A stretch of 64,000 nt of DNA from Truepera sp. (lineage in GTDB: Bacteria; Deinococcota; Deinococci; Deinococcales; Trueperaceae), in assembly GCA_965218435.1 (NCBI GenBank), contig CBDCKW010000009.1, forward strand, positions 992,001-1,056,000, read 5' to 3'. The notes beneath the pieces were generated by a model. It searched no databases. It was given only the letters and a program-made list of their open reading frames with translations, and was not told the origin of the DNA. Position 1 is the first letter of the stretch; every line of letters begins with the position of its first letter. The position numbers and the translations under genes were made by a program. Below are positions 2 to 9,382 of this stretch, in pieces.

Positions 2-1045
2 AGCATCCCGACCTGCATCATGGTCTTCAAGAAGTGCCGCGAGAACCCCGAGAACATCCTCTTTATCGACGCCAGCGCCCACTTTGAAAAGGCGAGCAAC
101 CAGAACTATCTGCGTGACGCGGACGTGGAGAAGATTGTCAGCACCTACCGGGAGCGCAAAGCAGAGCCCAGGTACAGCCATGTTGCGCCCTTAAGCGAAA
201 TCGAAGAGAACGACTACAACCTGAACATCCCGCGCTATGTGGACACCTTTGAGGCGGAAGAGCCAATAAATTTAGATGATGTAGTTCTTCTTTTAGACGA
301 TTCTCAAGAGGCATTTGAGGAAGCCGATGCAATCATTGCAAGATTTTGCCGCGAGTTAAATCTCCCTGAACCTAAAGGCGTCAATGTGAGCTTGCTAGAG
401 ACCTACAAGCGCGGCGTGATGCAAAAGCTCTTTTCGCAAGAGGTGCGGTTTAAGAGGGAGGACGGCTCGAGCTTTCCTGATTGGGAAGAAACTACTTTGG
501 GCGAAATTGCAAGTGTACATAAAGGTGGTGGTCTAAGTAGAAGTTCGATTGTGGCAGACGGTTTATATTCTTGTATTCTTTACGGCGAGCTTTTCACAGG
601 TTACTCCGAAGTCATTTACGAGGTAGATTCTAAAACCAACGAAGATTTGGGACTACCTAGCAAATCCGGTGATATTCTCATGCCTACCTCTGATGTGACA
701 CCTAATGGCTTGGCAACCGCAAGTGTAATTATGAAAGACGATGTCAGATTAGGCGGGGACATCAACATTATTAGATTACAAGGTAATCAATCCCCAATAT
801 TTATGTCGTACTTGATAAACTCAAAAAAAGCTGAGATCATTCGTTTGGTAACGGGTACGACTATCAAGCACATCTATGCTAAAGACATCAAAAGCTTAAT
901 TTTGAGCATTCCATCATCTACTCTTGAACAACAAAAAATCGCCGCCTTCCTCTCCGCCATCGACACCAAACTAGACGCCGTAAACGCGCAAATTTCACAG
1001 ACGCAGCACTTCAAAAAGGGTTTACTGCAACAAATGTTTGTCTAG
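2..1045 (+). CDS. hsdM: Type I RM methyltransferase HsdM C-terminus fused in frame to a half HsdS (one TRD plus conserved helices); 5'-partial
   Basis: The frame is open from the window edge (SIPTCIMVFKK...ILFIDAS...NDYNLNIPRYVDTFE, typical HsdM C-terminus). It continues without a stop into HsdS motifs: YKRGVMQKLFSQEVRF..FPDWEETTLGEI ... EQQKIAAFLSAID..KKGLLQQMFV. Confidence 0.9.
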   Translation, partial: SIPTCIMVFKKCRENPENILFIDASAHFEKASNQNYLRDADVEKIVSTYRERKAEPRYSHVAPLSEIEENDYNLNIPRYVDTFEAEEPINLDDVVLLLDDSQEAFEEADAIIARFCRELNLPEPKGVNVSLLETYKRGVMQKLFSQEVRFKREDGSSFPDWEETTLGEIASVHKGGGLSRSSIVADGLYSCILYGELFTGYSEVIYEVDSKTNEDLGLPSKSGDILMPTSDVTPNGLATASVIMKDDVRLGGDINIIRLQGNQSPIFMSYLINSKKAEIIRLVTGTTIKHIYAKDIKSLILSIPSSTLEQQKIAAFLSAIDTKLDAVNAQISQTQHFKKGLLQQMFV

Positions 1046-1091
1046 CTTCAAGCCATACCGACCAATATGACCGATATGCTACGATAGGCGT

Positions 1092-1391
1092 ATGATCAAG
1101 ACCGTCCCGGCAGTCAAAGCAAGGCAACAGTTCGGCAGTTTGCTTAACGAGGTAGAGCTTACTGGGGCGAGTATCGTCATTGAGCGCGACGGCAAACCCA
1201 AAGCGGTGATGGTGTCCGTGGCCCGCTTTGAAGCTTGGGAGAAGCGCCGGGAACAGGCGCTAGAGAACCTGAAAATGCAAGCTGAGCGTAATCAGGCGTT
1301 GCTGGGCGGCGAGGGTGTAAGCTTCGATGCGCTCATGGACGAACTGGTCAGCGCCAGCAAAGACGCCCGCAAAGAAACGGTCAAGCCCTAA
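1092..1391 (+). CDS. Phd/YefM family antitoxin
   Basis: N-terminal ARQQFGSLLNEV..GASIVIERDGKPKAVMVS matches the Phd pattern; directly upstream of a PIN gene. Confidence 0.85.
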   Translation: MIKTVPAVKARQQFGSLLNEVELTGASIVIERDGKPKAVMVSVARFEAWEKRREQALENLKMQAERNQALLGGEGVSFDALMDELVSASKDARKETVKP

Positions 1392-1397
1392 ACGTCT

Positions 1398-1817
1398 GTG
1401 CTGGTCGTTTTAGACACGAATATCCTGATCGCCTTTTCTATCACCAATCGTCCCCCTATTACGCACATCAGAGACGCCTGGTTGACGGGCAAGCTGGACA
1501 TCGCCGTGACCGAAACCCTGATAGAGGAATATACGCGGGTCACAGGTTACAAGCACCTTGCCAGATACTTTGAGGGCGCGGAGCGTCAGGAGCGTATAAG
1601 TGAGCTTTACGATTTCGGTGTCCTGATTGAGATTGCCGAGCCGTACCCCGACGCGCCCGACCTGGATGACCGCTACCTCTTTGCGATGCTTGAGCATCCT
1701 CTGGTGGTGGCGCTGGTTACAGGCGATAAGGCGCTCCTTGGGCTCGAGTCTTTTGGGGGCAAGCCCATCCTCGGCCCTGCGGCGTTTGTGCAGCGAGTTC
1801 TGAATGCGCAGGGCTGA
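1398..1817 (+). CDS. PIN-domain (VapC-like) toxin
   Basis: VVLDTNILI, EEY, DLDDRYL and LVTGDKALL acidic PIN motifs. Confidence 0.85.
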   Translation: MLVVLDTNILIAFSITNRPPITHIRDAWLTGKLDIAVTETLIEEYTRVTGYKHLARYFEGAERQERISELYDFGVLIEIAEPYPDAPDLDDRYLFAMLEHPLVVALVTGDKALLGLESFGGKPILGPAAFVQRVLNAQG

Positions 1818-1867
1818 GGTGTCGGGTTTTTCTGCGGGTTCTCTTCGCCGCTCTGATAGCGTTTAGC

Positions 1868-4729
1868 ATGGTTCAGTCCGAGGCGCAACTAGAAGAGAGT
1901 CTTATAAGTCAGCTCACGGGTTTGGGTTACGAACGGGTAGTCGTTCCGGACGCGGCGGCGCTCGAGCAGAACCTCAAGCGGCAGCTAGAGAAGCACAATG
2001 GGCTCACCCTCTCGAACGGCGAGTTTCAAAAGGTCTTGAACCACCTCAATAAGGGCAACGTCTTCGAGCGGGCCAAGACCCTGCGCGACCGGATGCAGCT
2101 CCCCCGCGACGACGGCAGCACCGCCTACCTTCAGTTCTTAGACAGCGAAAACTGGTGTCAGAACCGCTATCAGGTCACGCACCAGGTCAGCGTAGAGGGG
2201 CGGCACAAGAACCGCTATGACGTGACGCTGCTGATCAACGGCCTGCCCCTGGTGCAGATCGAACTCAAGCGGCGCGGCATGGAGCTTAAAGAGGCGTTCA
2301 ACCAGGTGAACCGCTATCACCGCCACTCCTACCGGGCAGGGAGCGGGCTGTTCCAGTACGTGCAGCTCTTTGTCATCTCGAACGGCGTCAACACCAAGTA
2401 CTACGCGAACAACCGCAAGCAGGACTTTAAGCAGACGTTCTTCTGGGCCGACCGGGAAAACCGGCTCATCACCCAGCTCGACAGGTTTGCCGACGCCTTT
2501 CTGGAGAAATGCCACTTGTCTAAGATGATCTGCAAGTACATCGTCTTGCACGAGTCGGACAAGGTGCTGATGGTCTTGCGCCCCTACCAGTACTTCGCGG
2601 CGGAAGCGCTGGTGGACCGGGTAGCGCACACCCGCAAAAACGGTTACATCTGGCATACGACGGGCTCGGGCAAGACCCTGACGAGCTTCAAGGCGGCGCA
2701 GCTCTTGACGGCCATAGATGGCGTTCACAAGGTGGTCTTCGTCGTTGACCGTGCCGATCTGGACTACCAGACGACAAGGGAGTTCAACTACTTCAGCGAG
2801 GGCAGCGTAGACGGCACCACCAACACCCGCGCTTTGGTCAATCAGCTTGCAGGCAAGAACAAGCTTATCGTCACCACCATTCAAAAGCTCAACACCGCCA
2901 TCAAGTCGAGCCGCCATGAACGGGCGATGGAACGGCTGAAAGACAAGCGGGTCGTGTTTATCTTCGATGAGTGTCACCGCTCGCAGTTTGGCGAGACGCA
3001 TAACGCCATCGTCACCTTCTTCGCTGAGGCGCAGATGTTCGGTTTTACCGGCACGCCTATCTTCGCCGACAACGCCATCAAAAAGCGCACCACCAAGAGC
3101 TTATTCGACGAGTGCTTGCACCGCTACGTCATCACTAACGCCATCAAAGACCAGAACGTCCTCAAGTTCTCGGTCGAGTACTGGGGCAAGCTCAAACGCA
3201 AAGACGGCAGCCTGATCGACGAGCAGGTTGAGAGAATCAACACTAGGGAGGTCTTTGAGCATGAAGAGCGCCTCGAGGGGGTGGTGGACTGGATTATTGA
3301 GAACCACGGGCGCAAAACGCACGGCAAGCAGTTCTCGAGCATCTTCTGCGTCTCGAGCGTCGAGATGCTCATCAAGGTCTACGACATCTTTAAGGCGAAA
3401 AAAGACGCGGGAGAGCACGACCTGCGGGTGATCACCATCTTTACCCCTACCGACAACGAACCCGACGACGACGCGAACGGGCTGATCGGCGACCCTGATA
3501 TGGATGTTGATGCGGCGGACGTGAACAGCCACAGCAAAGACAAGCTCGAAAGCTTTATCGGAGACTACAACGCCATGTACAGCACACAGCACTCGGCAAA
3601 GGACTCAACCGCTTTTTATACCTATTACAAAGACATCGCCAAGCGGATGAAAGAGCGCGACCGTGAGGGCTTTTTAGATGCCGACCGCGCCGACATTTTG
3701 CTGGTCGTCAACATGTTTTTAACCGGCTTCGACGCCAAAAAGCTCAACACCCTCTATGTGGATAAGAACCTGCGTTATCACGGGCTGATTCAAGCCTACT
3801 CACGCACCAACCGCACCTTGGGTGAACTGAAAAGCCAGGGCAATATCGTCTCGTTTCGCAACCTCAAAGACAAGACCGATGAAGCCGTCGCACTCTACTC
3901 CGACGAAAACGCCAACGAGAACGTGCTCTTGGAGCCCTATGAGCACTATGTCGAGCGCTTCAACCAAGGTGTCGTCGCTCTAAAAGCCATCAGCGAAACA
4001 CCGGACGCCGTGAACGACCTCGATAGCGAAGACGAACAGCTCGAGTTTGTTCAAGCTTTTAGAGGGCTCATCCGTGAGCTGAACGTGCTCACTTCGTTTA
4101 CTGAATTTGGCTTTCACGACCTCGAGCTACCTGAACAGCAGTTTGAAGACTTCAAGAGCAAGTACCTGGACATTCACGACCGTTTCAAAACCGGGGGCGG
4201 TGGCGAGGGCACAAGCATCATCGACGATGTGGACTTCGAGCTGGAACTCATTCAACGTGATGAGATCAACGTGGCCTATATCCTCAAGCTACTCGCCAAG
4301 CTTAAGGAGACCGAGACTAAAAAGGGTAAGGGCCAAGCCTACGAGAAGCAGAGGAAGCAAGTCCTTGACACTCTTTCGCAAGAGGTGCAGCTCCGCAGCA
4401 AGCGCGAGCTAATCGAACGGTTTATCGACAAGAACATGCCCGCCTTGCAGCCTGAAGACGACGTGACCGAAGCGTTTAGCATGTACTGGTCGGCTGAGAA
4501 AGACGCCTCACTCGACGCGCTGAGTCAGCAAGAGAAGATTGACCGTGCCGCCGTTGAACGCCTCCTCAGTAACTACCAGTTTTCAGGCAAGGAACCGCTG
4601 CGCGAAGAGGTATTTGCGGCGCTCGAGGCCAAGCCGAAACTTGTAGAGCGCAAGACCGTCTTTGAACGTATCGTCGGCAAGCTGATGGAGATTGTGCAGG
4701 TCTTTGAAGACGATATGGGGGCGGTGTAG
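1868..4729 (+). CDS. hsdR: Type I restriction endonuclease subunit R
   Basis: RYDVTLLINGLPLVQIELK nuclease motif; HTTGSGKT Walker A; DECHRSQ; GFTGTP; LTGFDA; QAYSRTNR. Confidence 0.97.
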   Translation: MVQSEAQLEESLISQLTGLGYERVVVPDAAALEQNLKRQLEKHNGLTLSNGEFQKVLNHLNKGNVFERAKTLRDRMQLPRDDGSTAYLQFLDSENWCQNRYQVTHQVSVEGRHKNRYDVTLLINGLPLVQIELKRRGMELKEAFNQVNRYHRHSYRAGSGLFQYVQLFVISNGVNTKYYANNRKQDFKQTFFWADRENRLITQLDRFADAFLEKCHLSKMICKYIVLHESDKVLMVLRPYQYFAAEALVDRVAHTRKNGYIWHTTGSGKTLTSFKAAQLLTAIDGVHKVVFVVDRADLDYQTTREFNYFSEGSVDGTTNTRALVNQLAGKNKLIVTTIQKLNTAIKSSRHERAMERLKDKRVVFIFDECHRSQFGETHNAIVTFFAEAQMFGFTGTPIFADNAIKKRTTKSLFDECLHRYVITNAIKDQNVLKFSVEYWGKLKRKDGSLIDEQVERINTREVFEHEERLEGVVDWIIENHGRKTHGKQFSSIFCVSSVEMLIKVYDIFKAKKDAGEHDLRVITIFTPTDNEPDDDANGLIGDPDMDVDAADVNSHSKDKLESFIGDYNAMYSTQHSAKDSTAFYTYYKDIAKRMKERDREGFLDADRADILLVVNMFLTGFDAKKLNTLYVDKNLRYHGLIQAYSRTNRTLGELKSQGNIVSFRNLKDKTDEAVALYSDENANENVLLEPYEHYVERFNQGVVALKAISETPDAVNDLDSEDEQLEFVQAFRGLIRELNVLTSFTEFGFHDLELPEQQFEDFKSKYLDIHDRFKTGGGGEGTSIIDDVDFELELIQRDEINVAYILKLLAKLKETETKKGKGQAYEKQRKQVLDTLSQEVQLRSKRELIERFIDKNMPALQPEDDVTEAFSMYWSAEKDASLDALSQQEKIDRAAVERLLSNYQFSGKEPLREEVFAALEAKPKLVERKTVFERIVGKLMEIVQVFEDDMGAV

Positions 4730-5163
4730 GGAGTCACAGCTAGCCCTTCGTATGAACTTAGCCAAACGTAGTGTGCTATCTTCTGCACGTCCAACCGATC
4801 AGTGCGCCAGCTTTAACATCACGGCTGGCGCACTTGAAACGGTGATTTAAGCAGCGTTAGGTAAGACCATCGTTTCAAGGGTTCTAAGCTGATATCGGGC
4901 CAAATCCCACTTGAGCCCAGCGAGTTCAAACGCACACGTTCTTATCACGATAAAACAGGCAGAGCTTTCCTAATCGAACCTTTAACTCCATGAAACTTAA
5001 GCAGCCATTAAGCTTCGCCTCTTAGTATGTTCACATCAAAAGCTTAACGAGAGGAAGGGCCGTAAGCGTCCGTCTAACACACCACCGTCGTGCTGTGAGG
5101 TTTGGGGTGAAAAGGGGCTCACAACACCGTTCAGCGTCCGAGGGACGTAAGGAGGGTTCAAAA

Positions 5164-6408
5164 ATGTTTAAACGCGTTTTGCTGGTCGCAGGACTTATGG
5201 CTCTCGCCGCTTGCTCACAAGCTCCCGTCTCGCCGATTGAACACCTTGACCTTTCAGCCCAACGTTTGGGTACGGCTGCCTATGACTCGGTTGCCGACGT
5301 CGCCGTCGATAGGACGCTAGGGGCCGTTTATGCTATCGGCAGCACGACCGGCTCGCTCGACGGGACCAACCGGGGCGGATCCGACGTGTTTCTCAGACGC
5401 TACAACCGGAACGGCACAGTCGTCTGGAAGCGGCAACTCGGCGGTACCCCGCAAGACACCGCCTTCAGCGTCGCGGTCGCCCCGAACAGCTCGGTTTTTG
5501 CTGGCTATACGCAAACAGAGGGTGCCTACTACGTCGGGGACGGCCTACTTCAGAAGTTCTCCGCCAATGGCGCACGCCTGTGGACGCGCAGATTTAGGGT
5601 TGATGACAACCTTACTGAGGTTACGTCCGTCATTGCCGACCCGAGTGGCAATGTCTTTGTCGGCGGAAGTTTGGGTGGAGCCACCGGAGCCTTTGTCAGA
5701 AAATACTCGGGCTCGGGAGCGGTGCTCTGGACTTATGTGTTTTATGGTAACGGTATTGTTCAAGAGGTCGAAGCTCTGACTACCGACGCTGCTGGGAACG
5801 TCTACGCGGGCGGCAACGACTACGACGATTCCTGGTTTACTAACTTCCTTATCAAGCTGAGCCCCGGCGGCGAGCTGCTATTTTCAACGGAACTCAGCGC
5901 CGGAAGGTCCAGCTTGACGAGTATCTGGGACATGCAGGTAGCAGGTAATACTATCTACGTCGCGGGCTCTAAGACCTACAACTATGAAAACCCTGACAGT
6001 GAGGAGAGAGATGCCTTCGTCGGTAAATACACGCTCGGCGGCGTGCCGCAGTGGCAGAAAACGTTCGGTACCCGAAGCAGTGACAGCGCGTTGGGACTCT
6101 CAGCCGACACGAACGGCAGCTTTTACGTCACGGGTTACACCTGCGGCAGTCTCGGCGGCAGCGTTGATCCAGGTGGCTGCGATGTTTTCTTGCGTAAGTA
6201 TAACGGCAGCGGTGCAGCTCTCTGGACTAAACAGATTGGCTCACCGGGCAACGACTATGGTGAAGCGGTAGCGGCCTACAGCAGCAGTGAACTTTACCTG
6301 GGCGGTGAGGTAGGCGGAGCCCTCGCAGACACCACCTACCGTGGCGGTCAGGACGGCTTCTTGCGCCGCACCGATGGCCAGGGCAACCGGCGTTGGACAG
6401 ACCAGTAG
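5164..6408 (+). CDS. SBBP-repeat beta-propeller lipoprotein
   Basis: RBS AAGGAGG before ATG 5164; lipobox LAAC; repeated D..GNVYxxG...D(V/A)FLRKY...G..LW motifs. Confidence 0.85.
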   Translation: MFKRVLLVAGLMALAACSQAPVSPIEHLDLSAQRLGTAAYDSVADVAVDRTLGAVYAIGSTTGSLDGTNRGGSDVFLRRYNRNGTVVWKRQLGGTPQDTAFSVAVAPNSSVFAGYTQTEGAYYVGDGLLQKFSANGARLWTRRFRVDDNLTEVTSVIADPSGNVFVGGSLGGATGAFVRKYSGSGAVLWTYVFYGNGIVQEVEALTTDAAGNVYAGGNDYDDSWFTNFLIKLSPGGELLFSTELSAGRSSLTSIWDMQVAGNTIYVAGSKTYNYENPDSEERDAFVGKYTLGGVPQWQKTFGTRSSDSALGLSADTNGSFYVTGYTCGSLGGSVDPGGCDVFLRKYNGSGAALWTKQIGSPGNDYGEAVAAYSSSELYLGGEVGGALADTTYRGGQDGFLRRTDGQGNRRWTDQ

Positions 6409-6538
6409 TGGGGATATGTTTAATTGATGCGGTGTGTTGAAAGTTTACCCCCAGGAACGCGCTGTCTGTTACAACACCGCCGTAGAGGCATCCGGTCGGT
6501 TTGTGCCCTTTCTTTTAAGTCTCTACATAGAAACCGAA

Positions 6539-6559
6539 AGCCCCCCGATTTGGGGGGCT
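6539..6559. terminator. Hairpin between convergent genes, probably a bidirectional terminator
   Basis: AGCCCCCC-gattt-GGGGGGCT stem-loop. Confidence 0.6.
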
Positions 6560-6565
6560 CTATCG

Positions 6566-6895
6566 TTATGCTGCCTCGCGGTAGGGTTCAAACAGCCGCA
6601 CGCTGTAACATGCCAAATCCCACTCGAGCCGCGCGAGTTCAAAAGCGCAGCGAGCTTCTATCAGCGCGTCCTCAGCTTCAGCGAGCGCCGCATACTCCGA
6701 ACTCAGCTCGAGCCGTAGCTTAGCTGTCCGCTCCCGTTCGTTCTTACCTTCTACGCCTTCACAGAGCTTGTGTGCTTCACTCAGCTCGAGCCCTCGCTTG
6801 GCTTCAGCGTGAGCAGTGACCGCACCGCATAAGGTGATCTGAGTATCCTCTAAGCCGTTCTTAGCTTGGGTGAGTTGGGATAAGAGAGGGGCCAT
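6566..6895 (-). CDS. Hypothetical coiled-coil protein (third gene of the island's leftward operon)
   Basis: 109-aa ORF with a TAATG overlap with the upstream ORF; helical A/E/L-rich; ends in EAA. Confidence 0.7.
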   Translation of the reverse strand: MAPLLSQLTQAKNGLEDTQITLCGAVTAHAEAKRGLELSEAHKLCEGVEGKNERERTAKLRLELSSEYAALAEAEDALIEARCAFELARLEWDLACYSVRLFEPYREAA

Positions 6896-7062
6896 TAGGC
6901 CGCCTCTCCCCAGAAGTCATAGTCAGGTACTTCGTCTTGAATGATGGGGGGCAGTTCATCGTCTGCCCCGTCGTCTTCAGCTGCCAACTCTGCGTAAAGA
7001 GCTTGTAAGTCCTCTTCACGGTCGCTGTACATCTCGATGTCCACGAAAGTAAAGGGGCTCAT
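6895..7062 (-). CDS. Very acidic 55-aa protein, not in the ORF track; DNA-mimic candidate
   Basis: MSPFTFVDIEMYSDREEDLQALYAELAAEDDGADDELPPIIQDEVPDYDFWGEAA; TAATG overlaps at both ends. Confidence 0.75.
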   Translation of the reverse strand: MSPFTFVDIEMYSDREEDLQALYAELAAEDDGADDELPPIIQDEVPDYDFWGEAA

Positions 7063-7268
7063 TAAAGAGCCCTCGCTGCGACACGTACTGCTGCTTTGAT
7101 GGTGGTGTGCTTAGAGACGCAGTTAAAGCCAGCGTCTAAAACCTCCCAGACGGTGCCCCAAGTCTGAAGCGTGCCGACCGTGACGCCGTTACGCTCGAGG
7201 TCATACGCCTTAACGGGGGTGCGGTAGCTTGCGCCGTCTTGCTTGTGAAGGGTGATGGTATTGTTCAT
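7062..7268 (-). CDS. Hypothetical small phage-like protein
   Basis: 68-aa ORF with a GGAG RBS; first gene of a coupled three-gene operon. Confidence 0.7.
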   Translation of the reverse strand: MNNTITLHKQDGASYRTPVKAYDLERNGVTVGTLQTWGTVWEVLDAGFNCVSKHTTIKAAVRVAARAL

Positions 7269-7339
7269 GTGGAACTCCGTTTCTAGTTAGGGGCTGTACT
7301 TTTGCGGGTCTGCCCTTAACTGCCTCTATACTACCATGC

Positions 7340-7385
7340 GTATGCTAGTAATACAAGGGGTGTAGCAGCTTGGGGTATGCTAGTA
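7340..7385. promoter_or_regulatory. Divergent promoter region with an 11-bp direct repeat (putative operator)
   Basis: GTATGCTAGTA at 7340-7350 and 7375-7385; the second copy overlaps the -10 TAGTAT (7381-7386) of the HTH gene. Confidence 0.6.
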
Positions 7386-7392
7386 TAAAGAC

Positions 7393-7761
7393 ATGGTTAC
7401 TTGGAAACTACGCGAATACTTAGATGCTCATAAGGTCAGCGCCTACGCCCTGACAAAAGCAGCTGACCTAGCCCCCAACACCGTCTACGCGCTGGCGCGT
7501 GGCGACCAGGGCCGGGTAGACCTAGTTGTGTTGGATAAGGTCATTACTGGGCTTGAGCAGCTCACCGGGCAGACGGTCACGTTTAACGACCTACTCGAGC
7601 GCGATACCCAAGACGGCGGCGTGGCGGTTGACGATTCAGAATATGAGTTTCCCGACGGCGTACCCGACGATATACGTGAGCGCATAGAACGCTTTGAGCA
7701 GAGTGATAAAAGGGGTAAGCCGCTCCGAGAGATTGCGGCTAAGTACGGTGTGAAGCGTTGA
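7393..7761 (+). CDS. Xre/Cro-C1 HTH regulator with an antitoxin-like C-terminal extension
   Basis: WKLREYLDAHKVSAYALTKAADLAPNTVYALARG..RVDL HTH; acidic then helical C-terminal tail; 4-nt overlap with a RelE-like gene. Confidence 0.8.
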   Translation: MVTWKLREYLDAHKVSAYALTKAADLAPNTVYALARGDQGRVDLVVLDKVITGLEQLTGQTVTFNDLLERDTQDGGVAVDDSEYEFPDGVPDDIRERIERFEQSDKRGKPLREIAAKYGVKR

Positions 7762-8066
7762 CCTATGAGGTTATTGTGTCGCCTCTAGCTGAAGCCGATT
7801 TAGACGCGATTACCGACATGCGAACCCGTAAAGCAGTCATTCGCAAAACTTTTGACCTTAGTACCGAACCCGACAAGCAAGGCAAGGCGCTAGGCAGAGA
7901 CTTAGGCGATTACCGCGTTGTCAGAGCCGCAGGGCAACGTTACCGAGTGGTGTATCAGATAGCGAGTCTCGAGGGTGTGGTGACGGTCGTGGTGGTGGGT
8001 ATCCGCAAGGAAGGCGACAAGAAAGACGTGTACCGAGTAGCTAGCAAACGGTTAGGAAAGGGGTAA
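7758..8066 (+). CDS. RelE/ParE family toxin
   Basis: YEVIVSPLAEADL...GKALGRDLGDYRVVRAAGQRYRVVY..VVTVVVVGIRKE..VY is a RelE pattern. Confidence 0.88.
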   Translation: MTYEVIVSPLAEADLDAITDMRTRKAVIRKTFDLSTEPDKQGKALGRDLGDYRVVRAAGQRYRVVYQIASLEGVVTVVVVGIRKEGDKKDVYRVASKRLGKG

Positions 8067-8068
8067 AG

Positions 8069-9211
8069 ATGGCGCGTAAACGAGCAGACGGTGAGGGCAC
8101 AATTTCTAAACGACCTGACGGCACCTGGGAAGCTAAAATCAGCTTGGGTTACGACGGTGAGGGTAAACGGAAGCGCAAAACCGTTTACGGACGTACCCAG
8201 GGCGAAGTCCGTGAGAAGATCGAGGTACTTAAACAGCAGGTGTCTAGCGGCACTTACACCGACACAAAACTGACGATAGCGGCTTACCTCGAGCGTTGGC
8301 TAGGGGAGAAGAAGCGTACGCTAAAGCCCTCGACGCTCGAGCAGTACGAGAGCTGTATCAACCGCTCGATTGTGCCGATCATCGGGAGTGCCAAGCTCGA
8401 TAAACTTACCCCTTTGCAGGTGCAAAACCTCGTCAACGGGATATACGATGTTTCGGGAGCGGCAAGGGCGGCAAAGTGTCGAACGGTACTTTTCAGCGCC
8501 TATAAACAGGCAATCCGCTGGCAGCTTGTGACTCGTAACCCTGTAGAGGTGACCGAGCCCGTAAAAGAGCCGCACCGAGAAATGACCTTATGGGAGCCGG
8601 AACAGGCGGCACGGTTTCTCGATGTGGCAAGGGGACACCGGCTCTACGCTTTCTTTTATCTAGGCATGGCCACAGGGTTGCGTCGCGGTGAGTTGTTAGG
8701 GCTGCGCTGGATTGATATAGAAGAGAACCTTTTGCACGTCAAGCAAACGCTTGTGAAGGTGGGGAGTCAGCTCATCCTCTCGACGCCGAAAACCCGTAAG
8801 GGATTTCGCACCGTCGCCTTATCGCCGGACGTACTCGAGGTGCTTCTCTTGCACCGTCAGCGCCAGGACGCCGAGCGTGCTCTACTCGGCGATACCTGGA
8901 AACACCCTGAACTGGTTTTTACCTCCGAGGTCGGGACACCCCTGAACCCTGACAACCTCAAGCGAGTACGCGATTACCTCATGGAGAAAGCCGACGTGCC
9001 CCGTGTCCGCTTGCACGATCTGAGACACCTACACGCTTCCCTCGCAATCAAGGGCGGGATGGACGCCAAGGTGCTAGCCGACCGTCTGGGCCATAGCCGC
9101 GCGTCGTTTACGCTAGACCGCTATACGCACCTTTTTGAATCGCAGAGGGCGCAGAGCGCGGTGTCCTTGCTTGATTTCTTACCTAAGAGCGACCCCGACG
9201 TACTAAACTAA
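8069..9211 (+). CDS. Tyrosine site-specific integrase
   Basis: N-terminal arm-binding domain (RADGEGTI); catalytic motifs TGLRRGELLGL, K(TRK), HDLRH and LGH..FTLDRYTH. Confidence 0.96.
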   Translation: MARKRADGEGTISKRPDGTWEAKISLGYDGEGKRKRKTVYGRTQGEVREKIEVLKQQVSSGTYTDTKLTIAAYLERWLGEKKRTLKPSTLEQYESCINRSIVPIIGSAKLDKLTPLQVQNLVNGIYDVSGAARAAKCRTVLFSAYKQAIRWQLVTRNPVEVTEPVKEPHREMTLWEPEQAARFLDVARGHRLYAFFYLGMATGLRRGELLGLRWIDIEENLLHVKQTLVKVGSQLILSTPKTRKGFRTVALSPDVLEVLLLHRQRQDAERALLGDTWKHPELVFTSEVGTPLNPDNLKRVRDYLMEKADVPRVRLHDLRHLHASLAIKGGMDAKVLADRLGHSRASFTLDRYTHLFESQRAQSAVSLLDFLPKSDPDVLN

Positions 9212-9277: not shown

Positions 9278-9307
9278 CGCTTTTGCTGTCTCTCGCGACT
9301 TTTCTTT

Positions 9308-9382
9308 TGGTAGGCGCGGGCAGGATTGAACTGCCGACCTCTACAGTGTCAATGTAGCGCTCTCCCACTGAGCTACGCGCCT
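9308..9382 (-). tRNA. tRNA-Val(GAC)
   Basis: Reverse complement folds as a cloverleaf: AGGCGCG acceptor, CTACA-TTGACAC-TGTAG anticodon arm, GTTCAATC T-loop, CCA end. Confidence 0.96.

Follow-up and report, generated by a model that had tools for sequence, protein, structure and literature searches.

A Conserved Early Operon in Satellite-Like Islands of the Trueperaceae and Its Acidic 55-Residue Peptide, a Candidate Restriction Inhibitor

An island of Truepera sp. carries, between its repressor-integrase module and its defence-cargo slot, three small genes that very probably make up a real, conserved and previously undescribed early operon. The middle gene, o55, encodes a strongly acidic peptide. 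Our preferred reading, to which we give a probability of roughly 0.4, is that o55 is a transient restriction inhibitor made as the element enters a cell. The window analysed is a 64,000-nucleotide stretch of the genome (G000:C9:992001-1056000); plain coordinates below are window positions, and L numbers denote loci.

The Island and Its Relatives

The island is about 25.6 kb long and is bounded by a 48-bp repeat, the 3′ end of tRNA-Val(gac). The attR copy of this core lies at 9305..9352, and the core is repeated at G000:C9:975751-975798. The contents are an integrase, an HTH-ParE pair, the operon, type I and type III restriction-modification (R-M) genes, an excisionase-like HTH gene, a CHC2 primase and a DUF3987 helicase. 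Sequencing depth in the island is about half that of the flank, a comparison of contigs of one sample that does not give a copy number.

Five copies of the cassette, plus a fragment, are found in this genome. The further copies lie in three more tRNA islands, in one of which o55 is frameshifted and o68 is stopped, and on a doubled circular contig. This contig (G000:C8) represents a small plasmid of about 10.4 kb that has the cassette, an HTH-ParE pair and a large Toprim replicase-like gene, and no integrase. Distant relatives of o109 and o55 are found on contigs C3 and C5. The sister elements are capsid-less and have primase and helicase genes, and Terminase_6N genes are found in sister islands L001 and L002; no terminase was recognised in the island studied here. 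Judged from their gene content, the elements appear to be phage-satellite-like elements of the Trueperaceae, comprising tRNA-integrated islands and small plasmids.

The island resembles PICIs and P4-like satellites with defence hotspots, as portrayed in the available part of PMC9122126, in its tRNA attachment site, integrase, divergent regulator, excisionase-like HTH gene, primase and helicase, and in the placement of variable defence cargo by the integrase module. It differs in having an unrecognised early operon with a leader hairpin between repressor and cargo, in the occurrence of the same module on integrase-less small plasmids, and in the lack of a recognised terminase.

Is the operon, then, a device for helper-phage interference or hijacking, as in PICIs, with o55 binding a basic phage protein such as a terminase or a transcription or replication factor? 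The make-up of the sister elements, the location of the operon between regulator and cargo, and the largely viral family of o109 fit this proposal. However, the cassette is not confined to islands, being found on plasmid C8 and in plasmid regions that carry ArdcN/ParB, it is strongly conserved across elements that probably use different helpers, and no relative of o55 or o109 was found in viral contigs. We regard the proposal as quite unlikely.

Operon Layout

The three genes are transcribed from the minus strand in the order o68 (7062..7268; 68 residues, basic, pI 9.4), o55 (6895..7062; 55 residues) and o109 (6566..6895; 109 residues, with Ala-Ala at the C-terminus). Two TAATG stop/start overlaps couple o68 to o55 and o55 to o109, as an earlier sequence-only reading of this DNA had described. 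An intrinsic-terminator-like hairpin (6537..6561, minus strand) closes the operon. On the plus strand are a divergent HTH repressor of the Cro/C1 type (7393..7761; 122 residues), a ParE-family toxin gene (7758..8066) and a tyrosine integrase (8069..9211), the latter two assigned by Pfam. The repressor matches Pfam HTH_26 at 26.6 bits, above the cut-off of 22 and below the curated family description. Because the ParE gene adjoins, the C-terminal part of the repressor is probably antitoxin-like.

Pfam, PHROG and PADLOC have no family for o55, o68 or o109, and PDB sequence searches with all three families gave nothing below E 0.01. A kinship of o55 with Ocr, ArdA or anti-CRISPRs, which the sequence-only reading had cited as known small acidic DNA mimics, finds no match in any of the four resources. 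A survey of the literature, comprising openly readable papers and abstracts, found no description of the operon or of its families.

Promoter, Candidate Operators and Leader Hairpin

The operon promoter (7328..7356, minus strand) consists of a -35 element, TTGTAT (7356-7351), a 17-bp spacer and a TG-extended -10 element, TAGTAT (7333-7328). A plain promoter scan alone did not detect it. Across 21 loci, the promoter elements stand 57-73 nt upstream of the first gene, with 17-18 bp between the -35 and the -10; the -35 element is TTGACA in 17 of the 21, and most of the 21 loci show the form TTGACA-17-TAnnnT.

Two copies of an 11-bp direct repeat are candidate operators. Copy 1 (7340..7350) lies within the promoter spacer, and copy 2 (7375..7385) overlaps a -10-like TAGTAT element that stands 6 nt upstream of the start codon of the HTH gene. 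The repeat is absent elsewhere in the genome. The arrangement seen earlier, i.e., an operon divergent from an HTH repressor across this repeat, is therefore confirmed, with the repeat in the spacer of a repressor-facing promoter. The spacer sequences differ among elements, as do the repressors, which is to be expected for putative element-specific operators.

The predicted mRNA begins with a leader hairpin (7286..7320, minus strand) that has a covarying stem, imperfect in this copy. In the alignment of the window copy with 20 related loci, 96.9% of cells are paired and 6 of the 8 pairs show compensatory changes. The covariation score was reached by none of 500 shuffles, and slid controls scored far lower. 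Rfam has nothing near threshold for the hairpin, which may act as a 5′ stabiliser or as a protein-binding site. A model of the hairpin matches eight places in the host genome, each of them an HTH-divergent promoter; the promoter unit is found in 10 of 128 genomes of the family. At L118:8911-14514 (G260:C1), a CRISPR array of 83 repeats, with cas genes alongside, has a weak hairpin match and an HTH-ParE-like pair at one of its ends. This promoter would presumably read antisense, judging by the orientation of the type I-E repeats, and the site is probably an element remnant.

The same promoter-hairpin unit drives other genes in place of the three-gene cassette in related loci: a GemA-like gene in L103, a KilA-N gene in L107, and, in L106 (G322:C807), a GemA-like gene together with a full ArdC (ArdcN plus MPTase). 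ArdC is reported, in the available part of PMC7213743, to overcome restriction in the recipient.

Protein Ends

Ala-Ala C-termini are found in 105 of 120 close o109 homologues and 107 of 120 o55 homologues, versus 47 of 2,137 long frames. For o109, the Ala-Ala codons vary at third positions and no gene lies downstream. For o55, the signal is confounded, as these codons overlap the ribosome-binding site of the next gene. The host tmRNA tag ends in MAA. In E. coli an Ala-Ala end is necessary, and not sufficient, for a ClpXP degron, according to the part of PMC10862746 at hand. Thus a short half-life for o55 and o109, read from their terminal residues, is likely.

The Acidic Peptide o55

The composition first reported for this frame is correct: its 55 residues include 18 D/E, one K/R (an Arg) and seven F/W/Y, for a pI of 4.05. 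The D/E background in long frames of the host genome is 11%. Among 3,510 ATG-started ORFs of 45-80 residues, o55 and its paralogues rank 7th to 11th for net acidity.

Homologue searches gave 168 o55 sequences. In the phylum, matches were found in 8 of 363 genomes; six are convincing, all in the element's own family, and two are marginal. Of 31 loci examined, 29 have o55, at full length in 21. From the 21 full-length DNA copies, two of which are identical, pooled pN is 0.148 and pS is 0.506 (dN/dS 0.20), and pN is below pS in 208 of 210 pairs. Indels are multiples of three, and third codon positions are the most variable. The same analysis gives dN/dS values of 0.34 for o68 and 0.17 for o109. 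By these measures of sequence change, o55 is a real gene, beyond a chance ORF. Acidity is retained in all 120 of the o55 homologues listed (median D/E 32%, minimum 19%), a count that is partly circular given that the homologues were collected by similarity. The sequence-only reading had made its proposal depend on conservation of the ORF and of its acidic bias, and both are upheld.

Conservation is patterned, beyond mere composition. Near-invariant positions are D8, E10, D14, R15, E16, L19, L22, F/Y23, L26, the ELPPIIQDE block and W51. A strand-like N-terminal motif, D[VI]E[VM]Y[AS]D, is followed by an amphipathic helix (about residues 14-30), an acidic linker that varies, and the tail ELPPIIQDE..W; the peptide ends in Ala-Ala (WGEAA in the island type). 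The AlphaFold2 monomer, built from 77 sequences, has a helix at residues 9-30 and a loose tail, at low confidence (pLDDT 68, pTM 0.33). A Foldseek search with this model gave no match, and the Atlas gave no usable match for o55. The monomer gives no support to a compact mimic fold: the model is one helix with a disordered tail. Such a model suggests that o55 takes on its fold when it binds a partner or dimerises.

The nearest known protein in size, charge and outline is T7 gp5.9, characterised in the available part of PMC9836394 as a DNA mimic acting on RecBCD and MukBEF, of about 50 residues and pI 4.0, with an N-terminal hydrophobic strand-like stretch and then an acidic helix. o55 shares the size, a pI near 4 and a strand-like stretch before an acidic helix. 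gp5.9 is a dimer, a parallel coiled coil that a beta-sheet braces. In contrast to gp5.9, o55 has a helix of only about 17-22 residues followed by a conserved proline-rich tail, there is no sequence match, and its host has AddAB.

Several variant arrangements were seen. Three genomes of other genera have the o55 core as the rear part of a fusion, with an unrelated first gene in front. At L097:14677-14883 and L069:6774-6995, the o55 slot is filled by a small CxxC zinc-finger ORF. This ORF and the fused o55 forms of L015-L017 have an LPASWVLIP flank in common, which suggests cassette shuffling at gene junctions; compared as profiles, o55 and the zinc-finger ORF showed no significant similarity, the match being limited to the flank of the fused form. 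In L080 the complete cassette lies on a contig of 7.6 kb that bears a cyanobacterial label and may be mis-binned.

The Partner Genes o68 and o109

o68 has 167 homologues and is swapped for other small genes in relatives. In the phylum, 68 of 364 genomes have an o109 match. The gene also matches 1,675 clusters at 50% identity and belongs to a large uncharacterised phage/plasmid family that is largely viral.

Could o55 be an antidote or chaperone, within the operon, of the basic o68 or of o109? Translational coupling and the opposite charges of o55 and o68 are in keeping with such a role, as is the presence of o55 in 14 of 15 metagenome loci retrieved by o109. The genes are nonetheless separable. 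o55 occurs without o68 in L015-L017, L068, L075 and L080, and in L055 the gene that follows it is another one; L069 has o68 and o109 and lacks o55, and o109 is found in far more genomes of the phylum than the eight with o55. We hold an antidote or chaperone role to be very doubtful.

The o109 model is a confident helical hairpin (pLDDT 95) with the loop G-x-x-G-K-N-x-x-x-R-x-A. The hairpin is similar in length to T4 UvsY and aligns to it with a Z of 9.0 (rmsd 3.3, 105 residues aligned), at rank 38 and tied with unrelated generic hairpins. Among named Atlas families, too, UvsY comes closest (0.87, 14% of members). Some o109 relatives adjoin annealing proteins, i.e., directly before RecT in L037 and near a Rad52-like gene in L038. 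Sequence does not bear out the assignment to UvsY: the PF11056/T4 UvsY profile gives a probability of 0.1%, and 0 of 130 family members have a Pfam UvsY match. We treat a UvsY identity as a lead only. A Foldseek search of a viral library with o109 returned uncharacterised proteins only, none at E ≤ 0.001, and a distant relative of o109, searched against phage records in GenBank, retrieved one hypothetical protein only.

These observations bear on a further proposal, in which o55 modulates host repair or recombination, either by blocking the end-resection complex AddAB in the manner of gp5.9/Gam or, as a mimic of the SSB tail, by recruiting or sequestering SSB partners, with o109 as a recombination accessory. 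The main lead is the DDLPF tail of the plasmid-borne o55 homologues in L006 and L059, which resembles the EEDLPF terminus of the host SSB. The host has an AddAB-like pair, and the neighbours and the hairpin of o109 are also suggestive. Yet island-type o55, ending in WGEAA, has no free Phe, DDLPF is seen in two examples only, and the likeness to UvsY is generic and without profile support. Further, gp5.9 does not inhibit AddAB, as stated in the available part of PMC9836394. A role in repair or recombination is rather unlikely, though likelier than the other rival roles considered here.

Defence Cargo

The cargo slot is directly behind the operon terminator, and its contents vary among elements. 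In the window, cargo at 20..4729 (plus strand) comprises the C-terminal part of a fused HsdM-HsdS, a Phd/PIN pair and an EcoR124-type HsdR; a type III R-M pair is located to the left of these genes, beyond the window edge. The fused gene (G000:C9:990799-993045, ending at window position 1045) encodes a 748-residue HsdM with a single HsdS specificity domain, and the Phd/PIN pair precedes HsdR. A second o109 3′-end remnant (4874..4936, minus strand), 1.7 kb from intact o109, brackets a beta-propeller lipoprotein gene (window 4874-6566); this looks like a relic of recombination at the end of the operon through which cargo was acquired. A tRNA-Ala island of the same genome, L094 (G000:C9:2143000-2160000), has CD-NTase plus patatin, DarT/macro and an HsdS fragment, and no cassette.

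R-M genes are present in 18 of 21 elements with intact o55 versus one of six in which o55 is absent or broken (Fisher p 0.004), counting readable cargo only, with L053, L066, L071, L073 and L076 dropped for their short flanks. The sample is small and non-independent, and two of the six negatives are decayed elements; without those two, p is 0.03. The cargo covers types I, II, IIG/MmeI, ISP and III, with some systems partial or IS-broken. The three exceptions among the 21 all belong to this genome and carry CBASS-like, SIR2 and DUF4238 cargo. Of the genome's four intact o55 copies, three lie on elements lacking R-M, and L093 has R-M with o55 missing. R-M is the commonest defence cargo in any case. 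Because the elements are kin and the o109 tree, mostly unresolved, does not decide independence, the association of o55 with R-M cargo is suggestive only. With cargo of five R-M types, o55 is not tied to the island's own type I enzyme, which the sequence-only reading had named as a possible target. Divergent o55 homologues lie behind ArdcN genes on two plasmid-like contigs; plasmid-type homologues so placed, ending in DDLPF, were noted at L006:5538-5717 and L088:7379-7591.

The host has two CRISPR arrays and cas genes, and a small, acidic, repressor-controlled protein might be an anti-CRISPR, as had been suggested. Against this, none of the 73 host spacers is self-targeting, the best off-array matches being 19/20 nt, an absence compatible with an Acr; the HTH regulator is divergent in all loci read, unlike a co-transcribed Aca; and there is no family match. 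We consider an anti-CRISPR role highly unlikely.

A Model for o55

The restriction-inhibitor reading runs as follows. The three genes would be the early operon, expressed on entry or induction, of a phage-satellite-like element. The divergent HTH protein would keep a strong promoter shut. Entry into a repressor-free cell, or induction, would then release a burst of small proteins, which ClpXP-type proteolysis would clear. o55, partly disordered, would fold upon binding a DNA-handling protein, its acidic residues standing in for phosphates and its few invariant hydrophobic residues conferring specificity. The purpose would be twofold: resident R-M would be kept off the element while its DNA, still unmethylated, enters or replicates, and a naive host chromosome would be shielded from element-borne R-M until methylation catches up. 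What is observed, and underlies the model, is the gene order, selection on the coding frames, a promoter consensus, the leader hairpin and the terminator, the Ala-Ala ends, and the location of the genes between the repressor-integrase module and the cargo slot.

In favour of restriction alleviation we count the low dN/dS, the invariant acidic and hydrophobic positions, the gp5.9-like size and pI, the promoter consensus, the Ala-Ala ends, the R-M link, ArdC in L106 and the ArdcN neighbours. Counted against it are the lack of a sequence or fold match to any mimic, the low-confidence one-helix model, intact o55 in elements without R-M, and the converse case of L093. Of the anti-defence operon first proposed, the conserved acidic gene and its repressor-facing promoter stand, strengthened by the R-M association and by ArdC under the same promoter in a relative; membership among Ocr, ArdA and Acr proteins, a compact fold, specificity for the island's own type I enzyme and an anti-CRISPR role find no support.

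In its proposed action o55 is most like the small inhibitors that mobile elements express early. Ocr and ArdA, which are larger folded dimers, are nearest to o55 in proposed role. o55 is likewise small and strongly acidic; in contrast to them, it has no homology, no compact fold in the model, and the company of many R-M types. Both are described in the available part of PMC12707154 as acidic, early-expressed proteins of mobile elements, and Ocr is described there as inactive against type III. DNA mimics are reported to be broad-spectrum (available part of 10.1101/2025.06.06.658234). Given five R-M types in the cargo and the inactivity of Ocr on type III, it is doubtful that a single peptide blocks all of them. 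We consider unlikely the bolder proposal that o55 is the first known member of a distinct group of DNA mimics, intrinsically disordered and self-destructing, and serves as a satellite timer that would briefly silence several R-M types after entry, its own cargo included, so that arbitrary R-M systems could be swapped and carried, with the promoter-hairpin marking an anti-defence slot.

Significance

It has long been asked how a mobile element can bring a restriction system into a naive host and not kill that host. The usual answers are regulation within the R-M operon or ClpXP acting on HsdR. If the restriction-inhibitor reading is true, an element-encoded, cargo-independent and short-lived inhibitor would be a different answer. 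If the timer reading is true, the promoter-hairpin unit could be mined for further inhibitors. Whatever o55 targets, three uncharacterised small-protein families and a new covarying leader RNA are defined, and the conserved early slot, ArdC-bearing in one relative, is a source of anti-defence candidates in the Deinococcota.
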